The translations under genes were made by a program, and so were the position numbers. Under the pieces are notes generated by a model. That model did no database searches, had not been told where the DNA came from, and saw nothing but the letters and a program-made list of their open reading frames with translations. Shown here in pieces: positions 17,414-63,744 of a stretch of 64,000 bases of DNA. Origin of the DNA: a phage; sequence record PZ445526.1; one strand, written 5' to 3'. Position 1 is the stretch's first letter; each line of letters begins with the position of its first letter.

Positions 17414-17812
17414 TTATACTCTATTACTGGAAGCCAGTTGCAGTTTTATCTGCTCAATATCATCAGGGTTATCGATGACAGAAAAGCGTATTTCTACTAT
17501 CAGAGTATAATCATCATAAACGGGTATCACATTAACTGCTAATTTATCAATACGTGGCTCATAGTTTCTTACTGCGCTTTCGATATTGCGCTCAACTGTG
17601 TCAGCAGTAAGAGGAGTCATATTTTCAAAAAGCTGGTCTGATAAATCACATCCAAATTCAGGGTCAAACGGTCTTGAACCTTTTCTTGTTGTAATAATTC
17701 CCAAAAGACTGTTTTTAATTGACCTTAATCCAAGTGATCTGGAAACGTCTTTGTTCCAATCCATTTTCATTTCCGGGTCAATGTCAGAATAAAGCTTATT
17801 AATATTTGACAT
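17414..17812 (-). CDS. 25: Baseplate wedge protein gp25
   Basis: 132-aa ORF, T4 gp25 size; start overlaps gp26 stop. Confidence 0.9.
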   Translation of the reverse strand: MSNINKLYSDIDPEMKMDWNKDVSRSLGLRSIKNSLLGIITTRKGSRPFDPEFGCDLSDQLFENMTPLTADTVERNIESAVRNYEPRIDKLAVNVIPVYDDYTLIVEIRFSVIDNPDDIEQIKLQLASSNRV

Positions 17813-18438
17813 TATAGTAACTCAAAGAACTCTTTGAGGCCTCTTATTACGTGAGCATGGGTTTTTCCACACTCTGGACACTTAATTGGAACAGCCAAAT
17901 AAACAGTAGGCTTTAAAAGCATATCTTTTATAGCTACAATATCTGACTCTGTGATGATAGAATATAAATCTTCCAGTTCTTTTTCATTTAAGTCTTCAAC
18001 TGGAATGCTTTCCCCGTTAGCGTGAATCGTTTCTATGCATGATACTATCATGTGGGCTATATTTTTATCATCAAAAATTTTAGGGTATCGGAATTTAATT
18101 TTAATGTCACCCAGTGTATACCAGAGGTCTTCTGGTGCATCTATTTGTGTATGTAATAGATTTATATGGGTTGGTATTTCAGTTCCACAGGTGCACTTCC
18201 AGGAGTTTTCGTGATTAACTTCGCCGAGAGAATGTGCCCATAAATGAATCAACAATAGTTCTGATTCTTGGCGGTTTAAATCTTTTGCATTTGTGCAGTC
18301 TTTGATTAGCTTTTTAACAATTACTTCTACGGAACCATTATTTTTGGCAGTAATAAGTTCTAGATATTCTTTAAGCGTGAATGCGCGACAATTGATTATT
18401 TTAGAACCAACTCTCACATCAAATTTGTATTCATACAT
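17812..18438 (-). CDS. 26: Baseplate hub protein gp26
   Basis: 208-aa ORF, T4 gp26 size; divergent from gene 51 with shared late promoter region. Confidence 0.88.
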
Positions 18439-40646: not shown

Positions 40647-42234
<1,588 letters not shown>

Positions 42235-42241
42235 AATAAAA

Positions 42242-42263
42242 TGGGCCTTGCGGCCCACTCCTT
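42242..42263 (-). promoter_or_regulatory. Split ribosome binding site of denA: SD + 16-nt hairpin + start codon
   Basis: mRNA sense: UAAGGAG | UGGGCC GCAA GGCCCA | UUUUAUU AUG; SD and AUG are 23 nt apart unless the hairpin forms. Confidence 0.5.
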
Positions 42264-43440
42264 AAAAATATTTTTTAAAACTCATCATAACTTTATCATC
42301 AACATCATTATCAATCTGTGCAACAAGGTAAGATGACAGTTCTACTTCTTGTGGCGCGGATTGAACATTATCAGAATTAAGATATTCACGAATCCAAGGA
42401 TATGGATGTTTAACCGGAGCATCGGTAATTGGGCATGGAAGACCACACTGTTTCATACGAGATACAGTTAAGTAATCAATAAAGCTCCACATGCTATTTG
42501 TATTTAATCCAGGAACATCGCCATCTTTAAATAAATGAACTGCCCAATCTTTTTCTTGGCGGTTAACTTCCATGAAAATATCAACTGCTTCTTGTTCACA
42601 CTCTTGAGCAATTTTAACCCATTCATCGCCATCAGTGCCAAGTTGAAGTTGACGAATAATATATTGGGTGCCTTTAAGGTGAAGCTGCTCATCACGTGCA
42701 ATGAACTTCATAATCTTGGCATTACCTTCCATGATTTCCATGTTCTTATGGAAGTTAAAGGTACATGCGAAAGATACATAAAAACGAATAGCTTCCAATG
42801 CGTTGATTACATGCAAACAGAGGTAAAGAGATTTCATTAGCTCATGCTTCCAATATGTCTCATGCTCAATAGCATCTTCAATAACGTCTTCGTCTGCATT
42901 AATTTCTTTTTGGTATTCGATATCAGCTTTAGCGTTTTCCCAATAACGAGTTTTAATCAGAACATCATCATAATAACGTCCAATGGATTCAGCACGTTTC
43001 ATAATAGCTTCATCTAATACAATTTCATCAAATACCTTCGATGGATCAGTATAAAGATTTCGCATGATATGAGTATATGAACGACTGTGAATAGTTTCAC
43101 TAAAAGTCCATGTAGCAACCCATGTATCAAGGCTTGGGTCTGAAATTAATGACATAAGTACAGCAGACGGCGCACGACCCTGAATGCTATCCAAAAGTGA
43201 TTGATACTTCAGATTATTAGTAAAAATATTTTGCTGATACTGAGGAAGCTTATTAAACTGTGCAGCATCCATCATCAAGTTTACTTCTTCAGGACGCCAG
43301 AAAAATGATAATTGCTTTTCGGTTAAATCTTCAAATACTCGATGCCGTTGAATATCATAACGCGCAATACCAAGACCTGAACCAAAAAACATGGGTTCTT
43401 TTAAAACATCAACTGGATTTGTATTAAAAACTGTAGACAT
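42262..43440 (-). CDS. nrdB: Ribonucleotide reductase small subunit NrdB (uninterrupted)
   Basis: Continuous ORF; first plausible start MSTVFNTNPVDVLKEPMFF at 43440 (392 aa); no intron-like interruption. Confidence 0.9.
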   Translation of the reverse strand: MSTVFNTNPVDVLKEPMFFGSGLGIARYDIQRHRVFEDLTEKQLSFFWRPEEVNLMMDAAQFNKLPQYQQNIFTNNLKYQSLLDSIQGRAPSAVLMSLISDPSLDTWVATWTFSETIHSRSYTHIMRNLYTDPSKVFDEIVLDEAIMKRAESIGRYYDDVLIKTRYWENAKADIEYQKEINADEDVIEDAIEHETYWKHELMKSLYLCLHVINALEAIRFYVSFACTFNFHKNMEIMEGNAKIMKFIARDEQLHLKGTQYIIRQLQLGTDGDEWVKIAQECEQEAVDIFMEVNRQEKDWAVHLFKDGDVPGLNTNSMWSFIDYLTVSRMKQCGLPCPITDAPVKHPYPWIREYLNSDNVQSAPQEVELSSYLVAQIDNDVDDKVMMSFKKYF

Positions 43441-44171
43441 TAATTTTTCCTCTTTAAAATTCTGCCGCGTTTCCAACCTGGCGGTATAATATCATCTTTA
43501 CCTATAAGCGTGCATTCACTTCCATTATTAATCCATTTCTTACCGCGGATTCCTTTATAATCTCTTGGTTGTATTTTGTCAAACTTTGCATCAAGTTGAT
43601 ATGCCCATCTAAATCCATAGGCATATTGAAATTTACCCTCAGCACAATATTTGATATTTGACCCGTTTCCATTAACTGACCTGGACGCTGCTGCAATAGA
43701 GTGAAAGGTTTCTATGAAATCCCCATCTAATGAGAATTTATGTATTTCGATAGATGGGCATGCATACCTATTCACGTTTGATACATGTCGTTTAGTTTCG
43801 TTTTTATGATGCTTGCCTAACATTCCTCTAGGATGAGGATTATTTTTCCAATATTTCTTAAAGAAATCAGAATTAGCTTTAGCAAATAATTTTCTGTGCA
43901 AGCTATACAATCTGTTATTAATTCTATTACCAGCTTTATCTGTTGCCATTAACGTTAACGCAGAGGCAAGCCCAAAATGGCCTTCATTTATCTTACATAG
44001 TAATAGATGCGCTATAAAATGTTCTCTAGCTGTTAATTCAACTAAATTTTCTTTATCATCAGAACCTCCCATGCATTTAGGGACTATATGATGTGTCTCT
44101 TTATATTCGGATAAAGGTTCCCGAGCCTGAGCTCGGGAAATTAGGTCGTTATAGATTTTTTGATAATTCAT
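43440..44171 (-). CDS. mobE: Free-standing HNH homing endonuclease (MobE-like)
   Basis: 243-aa ORF with HNH motif HHIVPKCMGGSDDKENLVELTAREH and C-terminal GFRWAY-type DNA-binding repeat; inserted exactly between nrdA and nrdB. Confidence 0.8.
   Translation of the reverse strand: MNYQKIYNDLISRAQAREPLSEYKETHHIVPKCMGGSDDKENLVELTAREHFIAHLLLCKINEGHFGLASALTLMATDKAGNRINNRLYSLHRKLFAKANSDFFKKYWKNNPHPRGMLGKHHKNETKRHVSNVNRYACPSIEIHKFSLDGDFIETFHSIAAASRSVNGNGSNIKYCAEGKFQYAYGFRWAYQLDAKFDKIQPRDYKGIRGKKWINNGSECTLIGKDDIIPPGWKRGRILKRKN
43440..44171 (-). mobile_element. Homing-endonuclease cassette in the nrdA-nrdB junction
   Basis: Single HNH gene with 1-nt stop/start overlaps on both sides; free-standing HEG architecture typical of T-even phages. 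Confidence 0.6.
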
Positions 44172-62932: not shown

Positions 62933-62960
62933 AGAGGGCTTCGGCCCTCTAAGGATTTTT
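62933..62960 (+). terminator. Stem-loop between genes 37 and 38
   Basis: AGAGGGC-TTCG-GCCCTCT then AAGGATTTTTA before the gp38 ATG. Confidence 0.55.
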
Positions 62961-62961
62961 A

Positions 62962-63744
62962 ATGGCAATTGTAGGTGTTCCTGGCTGGATTGGTGAATCT
63001 GCCGTGAATGAAACTGGACAACGCTGGATGGATGCTGCGATGAGAGAAGTTCGTGTTTCAGTTCCCGGTTGGATGAGTTCAATGGCTGGGCAATCTAAAG
63101 AGATTCATTATAGCATTGGTGCTAGCAATTCTTACAATAAAGACACACTAATAAACTGGATAAAAGCCCAAGGAAGCACTCCTGTTGTTATTACTATTAC
63201 AGGAAATATTGTTTCTCAATCTACTGGTGTTCCATGCTTAGATTTTCCTAGCTCATTAACTAATGCATATGTTACGTTGATCATTAACTCAGGTGTGACT
63301 GTTTACGGACGCGGTGGCAATGGTGGTAGTAACGCTGCTGGTGCTGCTGGTGGTAACGCAATTAATAATGGCATCGGTACACGCTTGCGTATTACGAATA
63401 ATGGTGCAATCGCTGGAGGTGGCGGCGGCGGCGGCGGCGGTAACAGGGGTAAACTAATATTTGGTGGTGGCGGTGGTCGCCCATTCGGTGCTGGTGGGTC
63501 TTCCTCTCATATGAGTTCCGGTGCAACTGCTGGCACCATTTCCGCTCCGGGTAAAGGATCTGTTGGTGAGGGGTCTCTTAGCGCATATACAGGCGGCGCG
63601 GGCGGCAACGTTGGTGCTGCTGGAGGAAGATGTAATACTCAAGGTAACGGTACAGAATATAACGGCGGCGCAGCAGGTAAAGCTGTTACTGGTAATGCTC
63701 CAACTTGGACTAAAGTTGGTACAATATACGGTTCAAGAGTATAA
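62962..63744 (+). CDS. 38: Receptor-recognising adhesin gp38 (T2-type, glycine-rich motifs)
   Basis: 260-aa ORF with conserved N-terminal MAIVGVPGWIGESAVNETGQRWMDAAMREVR and multiple poly-Gly motifs separating variable segments. Confidence 0.88.
   Translation: MAIVGVPGWIGESAVNETGQRWMDAAMREVRVSVPGWMSSMAGQSKEIHYSIGASNSYNKDTLINWIKAQGSTPVVITITGNIVSQSTGVPCLDFPSSLTNAYVTLIINSGVTVYGRGGNGGSNAAGAAGGNAINNGIGTRLRITNNGAIAGGGGGGGGGNRGKLIFGGGGGRPFGAGGSSSHMSSGATAGTISAPGKGSVGEGSLSAYTGGAGGNVGAAGGRCNTQGNGTEYNGGAAGKAVTGNAPTWTKVGTIYGSRV
63415..63441 (+). repeat. (GGN)9 glycine tract containing perfect (GGC)6 inside gp38
   Basis: ggaggt ggcggcggcggcggcggc ggt encodes GGGGGGGGG; second shorter GGTGGTGGCGGTGGT tract about 25 nt downstream. 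Confidence 0.9.

Follow-up and report, generated by a model that had tools for sequence, protein, structure and literature searches.

How does a ribosome find the start codon of denA, a gene for a nuclease that degrades host DNA, when the only recognizable Shine-Dalgarno (SD) sequence lies on the far side of a stable hairpin? The question arises at the nrdB-denA junction of a 64,000-nt stretch of DNA from a T4-type phage (record PZ445526.1, analyzed at full length and referred to here as the window), where minus-strand positions 42264..42232 read TAAGGAG, TGGGCC, GCAA, GGCCCA, TTTTATT and ATG in succession, a sequence identical to that in phage T4. The upstream gene, nrdB (42262..43440), encodes the 392-aa small subunit of ribonucleotide reductase and is intron-free here; it was taken from the ORF list and identified by a Pfam Ribonuc_red_sm match (E = 1.7e-36), with further backing from the GenBank annotations of 99%-identical phages. 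Its stop codon TAA (42264..42262) supplies the first three bases of the SD UAAGGAG (42258..42264, with GGAG at 42261..42258), which is a perfect 7-nt complement of the 16S rRNA 3′ end and forms a duplex of −7.8 kcal/mol with ACCUCCUUA. Next come the hairpin UGGGCC-GCAA-GGCCCA (42242..42257), which combines a 6-bp stem containing five G-C pairs (arms 42257..42252 and 42247..42242) with the GNRA tetraloop GCAA (42251..42248), and the 7-nt tail UUUUAUU (42235..42241), which is at once the spacer between hairpin and AUG and a terminator-type U tract. The denA coding sequence (41824..42234) then begins at ATG 42234..42232 and encodes endonuclease II, a GIY-YIG protein of 136 aa; all of these features lie on the minus strand. 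The original prediction had placed the GGAG 23 nt from the AUG, with the SD overlapping the nrdB stop, and had called this too distant for initiation; the sequence bears out the geometry, and 23 nt compares with a limit of about 15 nt.

The distance matters only if the ATG is the start. An in-frame GTG (42256..42258) would instead give a 144-aa DenA, with the hairpin inside the coding sequence and devoid of any role in initiation. This codon yields the longest ORF and is the one chosen by mechanical ORF calling, as had been remarked of the ORF track; it is also annotated in T4 records AF158101.6 and NC_000866.4, and the 144-aa form is found on 92 contigs in public collections. The T6 and G50 records use the ATG. 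The first G of the GTG is the last G of GGAG, so that its spacing from the SD would be zero, and the codon is locked within a stem of −12 kcal/mol. Just three of 21 junction variants offer any in-frame upstream start and the other 18 have none, the frame relation shifts with stop-to-ATG distances of 26, 27 or 28 nt, and the stretch evolves through compensatory base-pair changes rather than as codons. In the relatives, the ATG and the N-terminus are conserved throughout, with protein conservation starting at M-K-(E/D)-I-A. The ORF matches Pfam GIY-YIG as a 136-aa protein, and all 136 aa align with the EndoII chain of PDB 2WSH with two differences, one of which is the engineered E118A. The crystallographers' construct carries a His-tag followed by MKEIATEY, and UniProt entry END2_BPT4 is likewise the 136-aa form. 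The evidence therefore favors ATG 42234 and a 136-aa protein, as first proposed, and makes a GTG start very improbable. In AF158101 and NC_000866, the reference records of T4, and in many annotations derived from them, denA starts at the GTG inside the hairpin, which calls for correction.

The proposed hairpin between the denA SD and AUG is strongly predicted. Folded with its GNRA loop, the 6-bp Watson-Crick stem has a dG of −12.2 kcal/mol, and in a 48-nt context the fold has a z-score of −3.9, with none of 200 shuffled sequences as stable. The minimum-free-energy fold adds four weak pairs in which GGAG contacts UUUU through G-U and A-U pairing, for a total of −16.4 kcal/mol, and in the T-even sequence this weak pairing leaves GGAG with a predicted probability of being unpaired of 0.01–0.3. 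The pairing between SD and U tract had not featured in the original prediction. An Rfam search of the element returned sub-threshold noise only, the best hit, L20_leader, scoring 23.8 bits where the gathering score is 58.7. Chance occurrence was ruled out by the fold shuffles together with the pattern-scan null and the covariation given below. A DNA-level palindrome, or bidirectional terminator, was also rejected: the G-U pairs make the structure sense-strand-specific, and the plus-strand copy is then A-rich, not T-rich.

Conservation in relatives, named at the outset as a check on the hairpin, was examined in 26 distinct nrdB-denA junctions with the SD 5′ of the hairpin, drawn from at least seven Tevenvirinae genera (Tequatrovirus, Mosigvirus, Kagamiyamavirus, Gelderlandvirus, Winklervirus, Kanagawavirus and Gaprivervirus, plus Klebsiella phages); 21 were aligned and computed, and five were read directly. 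Within the 21 aligned junctions, compensatory changes occur at five of seven pairs (25 cells), a result equaled in 0 of 500 shuffles and clearly reduced when the partners were slid. Judged by this covariation, the hairpin is real and selected. Among the relatives it mostly comprises 5–7 bp with a UUCG or GNRA loop, a minority having UUUG, UUAG or 5-nt loops and one a 4-bp stem. The sole SD match lies 5′ of the hairpin and adjoins the nrdB stop in 26 of 26 junctions, with an A(A)GG(A) equivalent directly after the stop in every one (21 computed, five by eye). None of the 21 computed tails holds an SD match (dG ≥ −0.1; +2.8 for UUUUAUU in the window). With the hairpin folded, the effective SD-AUG spacing is 6–9 nt in 20 of the 21 computed variants and 12 nt in L014, and the distance from stop to ATG is 26–28 nt in 20 of 21 junctions measured and 32 nt in the remaining one. 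SD position covaries with tail length: the tail measures 6–10 nt in each of the 26 junctions whose SD precedes the hairpin, and the first ATG stands 16–32 nt past the stem where a canonical SD lies 3′ of it (Krischvirus and Karamvirus CkP1). A degenerate-pattern scan of IMG/VR for within-species stem variation returned only the same five contigs and was uninformative. RegB cleavage of the GGAG was considered in passing; the motif itself is not conserved, relatives having GGAC, GGAA, GGAU or GGU.

These regularities suggest that the hairpin probably folds the distant SD and AUG together. The stable 16-nt hairpin, with its 6 bp and GNRA loop, would loop out the bases between UAAGGAG and ATG, shortening the gap to a computed effective spacing of about 7 nt, close to the 8 nt or so first estimated. 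About 7 single-stranded nt would then lie between the SD-anti-SD helix and the AUG on the ribosome's 30S subunit, and we infer that the 30S would use an SD bridged in this way. A pattern scan of all 440 ATG-initiated ORFs of at least 60 aa, covering both strands of the window and requiring an SD, a hairpin, 4–11 nt without an SD, and an ATG, recovered two sites only, compared with 0.05 from shuffled upstream regions. One was denA and the other was the published gene 25 site, the recovery of which is a positive control for the scan.

The original prediction had likened denA to structure-dependent initiation in T4, and its geometry does match the proven split initiation regions of genes 25 and 38. 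The gene 25 region, at the gene 26-25 junction, was described by Nivinskas et al. (1999) and Malys & Nivinskas (2009); as recounted in PMC3014915, the hairpin shortens the SD-AUG spacing from 27 to 11 nt for gene 25 and from 22 to 5 nt for gene 38. The gene 25 site in the window, UAAUAAGAGG-C-hairpin-UUACUAUA-AUG, is nearly superimposable on that of denA. In both, the SD comes directly after the upstream UAA (UAAUAAGAGG versus UAAGGAG) and is followed by a tetraloop hairpin of 16–18 nt, an SD-free tail of 7–8 nt and the AUG, with linear spacings of 27 nt for gene 25 and 23 nt for denA, and each site is conserved among T-even-type phages. Gene 38 of T4 relies on the same principle, its 22 to 5 nt comparing with 23 to 7 nt for denA. 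The T4-type gene 38 is absent from this phage, in which an ordinary AAGGA SD comes after a UUCG hairpin at the gene 37-38 junction. By analogy, denA is likely a third case of the mechanism proven for genes 25 and 38. The proof for gene 25 came from mutational analysis and DMS probing. Full-text literature searches found no paper describing the nrdB-denA element, though an older mention is possible, and the papers that could be searched yielded no experiments addressing either denA initiation or transcript 3′ ends at the junction.

Several observations speak against a bridge. In gene 25 the hairpin is weak (−6 to −7 kcal/mol, z-score −0.5), rich in A/U and free of any terminator-like U tract; that of denA, at −12 kcal/mol, is much more stable, and its G/C-rich stem, GNRA or UUCG loop and U tract make it terminator-like. 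We know of no demonstration that the 30S subunit tolerates a hairpin as stable as −12 kcal/mol. Two lineages, L031 and L032, keep the hairpin despite a weak SD (−1.7 kcal/mol) and a lost U tract. Finally, folding predicts that the T-even GGAG is for the most part paired with UUUU, which would be an obstacle to initiation and not an aid.

This last point raises the possibility that the hairpin is chiefly a repressor, its lower GGAG:UUUU stem hiding the SD until a ribosome finishing nrdB melts the stem base, so that DenA output would be strictly tied to NrdB translation. The low probability that GGAG is unpaired, the −4.2 kcal/mol contributed by the extension in both the window and T4, and the similar weak pairing between SD and tail predicted in about half of the relatives are all consistent with such a gate. 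The pairing is not conserved, however: its outermost pair is found in only 11 of 21 junctions, and the SD is free in several lineages (L012, L019, L028-32 and L035). An extension of about −4 kcal/mol is also weaker than the −7.8 kcal/mol available from SD-anti-SD pairing, and sequestration as the main role of the hairpin appears improbable.

A stronger challenge to the bridge comes from transcription. The hairpin and its UUUUAUU tail look like a classical intrinsic terminator at the end of nrdB: on the transcribed strand, a G/C-rich stem-loop begins 4 nt past the nrdB UAA and runs directly into a U tract. This resemblance was overlooked in the original prediction. The tails are rich in U (63% in the 19 tallied versus 32% in 42 canonical SD spacers of the window), and GenBank records G50 and WFK carry a "putative transcriptional terminator" on the hairpin (−15.3 and −12.4, respectively). 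A simple consensus terminator scan of the window did not flag the denA hairpin, a miss that we tentatively attribute to the scan having extended the stem with G-T pairs that consumed the T run. Intercistronic hairpins of T4 with C(UUCG)G or GNRA loops were reportedly described by Tuerk and colleagues in 1988. Like the denA element, T4 terminators and intercistronic hairpins combine a G/C stem with an extra-stable tetraloop and a U tract, immediately downstream of a stop codon; relatives of the denA junction carry the C(UUCG)G loop itself. As with those terminators, termination at denA is expected to be leaky, so downstream genes would still be expressed. What sets denA apart is that the next AUG is only 7 nt past the stem, with its SD on the other side.

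If the hairpin terminates, it would probably stop, or stabilize at the 3′ end, a fraction of nrdB transcripts. The 1.3 kb upstream, from the 3′ half of nrdB through the gap between hairpin and ATG, yielded no late, MotA-type or early promoter consensus, and a separate denA promoter in either place was rejected on this basis. Since denA has no recognizable promoter of its own, DenA would be made only from read-through transcripts, on which the folded hairpin would render the initiation site competent. A mapped intrinsic terminator of T4 is formed by a hairpin inside mobE (Wilson & Edgell 2009, PMC2790892). In T4 omics tables, which give temporal classes only, denA RNA is "middle", like that of mobE behind its mapped terminator, and nrdA, nrdB and rnlA are "early". 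The difference in class between denA and nrdB is an indirect hint of termination between the two genes.

The hairpin might then be a terminator or 3′-protective element of nrdB and nothing more, with denA translated without structural help: ribosomes would re-initiate after terminating at the nrdB UAA, 27 nt before the ATG, or the A/U-rich region would support weak initiation, and the AAGGA that follows the stop would retain terminating ribosomes rather than serve as a bridged SD. The classical shape, the U-rich tail of most lineages and the annotators' predictions agree with this account, as do an SD that always adjoins the stop codon and a GGAG predicted to be masked by UUUU in T-evens. So does the retention of the hairpin in Krischvirus and Karamvirus, where a normal SD follows the hairpin, which is then not needed for bridging. 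Because the hairpin is kept in these relatives, bridging is not its sole role, and perhaps not its original one. In hairpin-less lineages, moreover, the stop codon of the upstream gene and the start codon of denA overlap: such coupling through ATGA or TAATG serves denA in Yersinia phage fHe-Yen9-01, in L098 and in Aeromonas phages, which suggests that denA is habitually coupled to its upstream gene. Since fHe-Yen9-01 and L098 are viable, the hairpin is dispensable in the presence of such an overlap, and coupling alone can serve denA. The window junction, like these overlaps, would make DenA output depend on the gene before it, but it differs in having a stable hairpin in a 27-nt gap between TAA and ATG, with neither overlap nor near-contact, and 27 nt is long for coupling. 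A pure terminator also has no need for a tail kept at 6–10 nt, a limit confined to junctions whose SD precedes the hairpin, nor does it explain L031 and L032, where hairpin and spacing persist without a U tract. For gene 25, proof exists that this identical geometry works as a bridged SD. A role restricted to the nrdB 3′ end is thus a serious alternative that we nevertheless regard as unlikely.

We consider it, overall, somewhat more probable than not that the junction is a bifunctional RNA element, in which one hairpin bridges a split initiation region and also acts as a leaky terminator or 3′ stabilizer of nrdB. To our knowledge, an intrinsic terminator inside a functional initiation region, between SD and AUG, has not been described. 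The further suggestion of the original prediction, that denA depends on ribosomes terminating at nrdB, is plausible in view of the stop/start overlaps of the hairpin-less lineages. Ribosomes terminating at nrdB would occupy the SD together with the stem base and may add a coupling component to the bridge, by briefly opening the weak GGAG:UUUU pairing and then re-initiating at denA. A more elaborate version joins the two functions in a transcription-translation switch: the terminator would set read-through from nrdB, the same hairpin would be the obligatory bridge for denA, and the ribosome at the nrdB UAA, covering the SD and the first stem pairs, may both hold back the folding of the hairpin behind RNA polymerase, thereby suppressing termination, and pass on to initiation at denA. 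We offer this combined switch tentatively, and think it rather unlikely in its full form.

If bridging is confirmed, denA would be the third natural hairpin-bridged SD site of phage T4, far surpassing the other two in stability and in breadth of conservation, with a presence in at least seven Tevenvirinae genera. The site also bears on how the 30S subunit could accommodate a −12 kcal/mol tetraloop hairpin placed between SD helix and P site. It also calls for caution with automated annotation: programs that call starts and those that annotate terminators read these 16 nt as one feature to the exclusion of the other, although here the two probably coexist. Were the switch to operate, the translation status of the gene in front would determine how much of a toxic nuclease is made. 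More generally, the placement of the denA start site behind and around a terminator may be a way for these phages to limit the production of a toxic nuclease.

The junction lies on the minus strand, in the gene order nrdA, a mobE-like HNH gene, nrdB, denA, rnlA. The phage is a T-even of the genus Tequatrovirus, and over this stretch it shares 99% identity with T6-like phages and numerous other isolates. Upstream lies the ORF for the ribonucleotide reductase small chain; the ORF downstream encodes a GIY-YIG protein matching the endonuclease II (EndoII) chain of PDB 2WSH across its whole 136-aa length, with two differences, one of which is the engineered E118A. Unlike T4 nrdB, which is split by a group I intron carrying I-TevIII, the copy in the window (42262..43440, minus strand, 392 aa) is uninterrupted. 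The mRNA at 42264..42232 reads UAA GGAG UGGGCC GCAA GGCCCA UUUUAUU AUG, exactly as first described, with 23 nt separating GGAG from AUG and six Watson-Crick pairs in the core of the GNRA-looped stem (ΔG −12.2 kcal/mol). Folding of the 48-nt context around the hairpin beat 200 of 200 dinucleotide shuffles (z −3.9). The nrdB TAA and denA ATG (42232..42264) share a frame, 27 nt apart, and read-through of the stop would fuse NrdB to DenA. Because this relation is not kept in relatives (26 or 28 nt), it is probably meaningless.

The GTG used by the ORF track (42258) lies, as pointed out in the original prediction, within the stem, its first G being shared with GGAG. Two T4 records, AF158101.6 and NC_000866.4 (137517..137951), also begin denA at this GTG inside the hairpin, yielding a 144-aa form found on 92 contigs in public protein collections, as against 214 contigs for the 136-aa form. 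UniProt END2_BPT4 is the 136-aa form, and the ATG start also appears in the T6 record and in PDB 2WSH. Just 3 of the 21 variants of the junction have an in-frame start 5′ of the conserved ATG, and the nrdB-denA frame relation differs from junction to junction; the stretch evolves via paired substitutions, not as codons, and protein conservation begins at M-K-(E/D)-I-A. Initiation at the GTG is highly improbable; as read from these sequences, the start of denA is the ATG. The enzymologists expressed a His-tagged MKEIATEY... protein and report no effect of a 31-residue N-terminal leader on activity, so activity data do not settle the native N-terminus. In the protein collection clustered at 90% identity, DenA shares a cluster of 787 members with 374-aa RnlA proteins, under a representative of RnlA length, evidently a clustering artefact and not biology.

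To place the arrangement within the genome, every ATG opening an ORF of 60 aa or more on both strands of the window (n = 440) was scanned for an SD (duplex ≤ −5 kcal/mol), a Watson-Crick hairpin (≤ −6 kcal/mol), 4–11 nt without an SD, and the ATG. Only two sites were returned, denA (42234) and gene 25 (17812), compared to 0.05 matches per pass after shuffling the 50 nt upstream. Gene 25, whose published split ribosome-binding site (17810..17850, minus strand) served as a positive control, has a junction with gene 26 reading UAAUAAGAGG-C-CUCAAAG-AGUU-CUUUGAG-UUACUAUA-AUG, comprising GAGG (17843..17840), the hairpin (17838..17821), the tail UUACUAUA and the AUG (17812). In both junctions a stop codon and SD are followed by a hairpin of ∼16–18 nt and a 7–8-nt tail, with the denA hairpin being about twice as stable. 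In T4, RNA structure between SD and AUG shortens the 22-nt spacing of gene 38 to 5 nt and the 27-nt spacing of gene 25 to 11 nt, and destabilising mutations lower initiation (Uzan and Miller review, PMC3014915); the likeness to structure-dependent initiation in T4 proposed originally is supported by this review and by the gene 25 site in the window. The window's gene 37-38 junction (62933..62964, plus strand; T2/T6-type adhesin gp38) has the reverse, 'normal' order, with a UUCG hairpin (AGAGGGC-UUCG-GCCCUCU) directly 3′ of the stop, then an ordinary AAGGA SD and the AUG.

DenA relatives gathered from IMG/VR and GenBank fell into three junction kinds. Class A comprises 26 distinct sequences with DenA 60–100% identical to that of the window, from Tequatro-, Mosig-, Kagamiyama-, Gelderland-, Winkler-, Kanagawa- and Gaprivervirus as well as Klebsiella phages, in the order nrdB TAA, A(A)GG(A)(G), hairpin, 6–10-nt tail, ATG. 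The hairpin has 5–7 G/C-rich pairs in every junction but one (L014, 4 bp), with mostly C(UUCG)G loops, GNRA in T-evens, and a few UUUG, UUAG or 5-nt loops. Of 21 junctions measured, 20 place the ATG 26–28 nt from the stop and one places it 32 nt away. Across the 21 junctions computed, no anti-SD match was found in the tail (ΔG ≥ −0.1), and the 5′ flank pairs with the anti-SD at −3.5 to −7.8 kcal/mol, weakly (−1.7) in two loci (L031, L032). In an alignment of 21 distinct junctions, both sides had changed in five of seven stem pairs (25 cells), and the covariation score of 0.46 vs 0.20 in shuffles (0/500) was lost when partners were slid. Its G-U pairs tie the structure to the sense RNA. Conservation of the hairpin, one of the checks proposed originally, therefore holds across class A, and the hairpin has been under selection as an RNA structure.

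Class B, consisting of Krischvirus (RB49-like, upstream gene not nrdB) and Karamvirus CkP1, retains a terminator-like hairpin followed by a canonical SD (GAGGAAAGGA or GAGG), with the first ATG 16–32 nt past the stem. The hairpin is thus also kept where bridging does not need it, and class A tails are 63% U vs 32% U (and 49% A) in 42 canonical SD-to-AUG spacers taken from the window, which together point to a second selected property. The obvious candidate, from sequence, is an intrinsic terminator or 3′-protective hairpin for nrdB mRNA. GenBank records of phages G50 and WFK annotate a 'putative transcriptional terminator' on the hairpin; a simple terminator scan did not flag it, perhaps because the T run is absorbed by the G-T-extended stem. 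That the hairpin is solely a terminator, with denA translated by coupling only, is a less likely though sizeable possibility: the short tail is confined to junctions in which the hairpin separates the SD from the ATG, as predicted by a bridged SD but not by a mere terminator.

A search of the 1.3 kb 5′ of denA gave no promoter consensus of the late, MotA or early type, so denA must be read from transcripts passing through the hairpin. In a T4 time course (PMC9697503 supplementary tables), denA and mobE RNAs belong to the 'middle' class and those of nrdA, nrdB and rnlA to the 'early' class; this pattern is compatible, weakly, with attenuation at the hairpin. T4 mobE sits behind a terminator mapped by 3′-RACE (Wilson & Edgell 2009, PMC2790892), and a 9-bp hairpin, UUCCCGAGC-UCAG-GCUCGGGAA (44118..44139, minus strand), ∼30 nt past the AUG of the window's mobE-like ORF, agrees in position with that internal mobE terminator. 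This ORF (44171..43440, minus strand, 243 aa), between nrdA and nrdB, exceeds the 141 aa of T4 mobE in length and seems to cover the T4 genes mobE and nrdB.1 together. The denA-rnlA spacer (41798..41823, minus strand) contains a MotA-box-like TGCTT, then TACTAT, and a small inverted repeat, CCACA-TGGAG-TGTGG; rnlA may have its own promoter or element here, which would fit the 'early' rnlA and 'middle' denA RNAs.

In the minimum-energy fold predicted for the T-even sequence, four weak GGAG:UUUU pairs extend the stem (−4.2 kcal/mol, total −16.4 kcal/mol) and leave GGAG mostly paired (P unpaired 0.01–0.3). Gating of denA by such SD sequestration is improbable, as the outer pair is present in 11 of 21 junctions, several lineages have a free SD, and the anti-SD duplex (−7.8 kcal/mol) should outcompete this pairing. 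Ribosomes terminating at nrdB may still contribute, since they would open the stem base. The SD (42258..42261, minus strand) contains GGAG, the tetranucleotide that the T4 endoribonuclease RegB cuts in SDs of early mRNAs (review PMC2988021). The denA mRNA could thus be open to inactivation by RegB; beyond T-evens and a few other lineages, GGAG is not conserved.

The observation of a hairpin-separated SD was correct as a whole. The most economical explanation of the conserved SD-stop fusion, hairpin and ∼7-nt SD-less tail would be a split initiation region, in which the hairpin would bring the stop-fused SD near the AUG, its accommodation by the 30S subunit being supposed. By analogy with genes 25 and 38, we lean modestly toward such a region built around an apparent leaky nrdB terminator or stabiliser. 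Class C (Yersinia phage fHe-Yen9-01, contig L098 and Aeromonas phages) lacks the hairpin, and the denA start overlaps the upstream stop as ATGA or TAATG, so coupling alone can serve denA. No description of the denA hairpin-SD element was found in the literature searched, and an earlier mention in older T4 papers is possible. The split-site principle is already known; a terminator-like hairpin between SD and AUG is an added feature of some novelty. The 33-nt junction has the same sequence in T4, so anything that applies here applies equally to the model phage.
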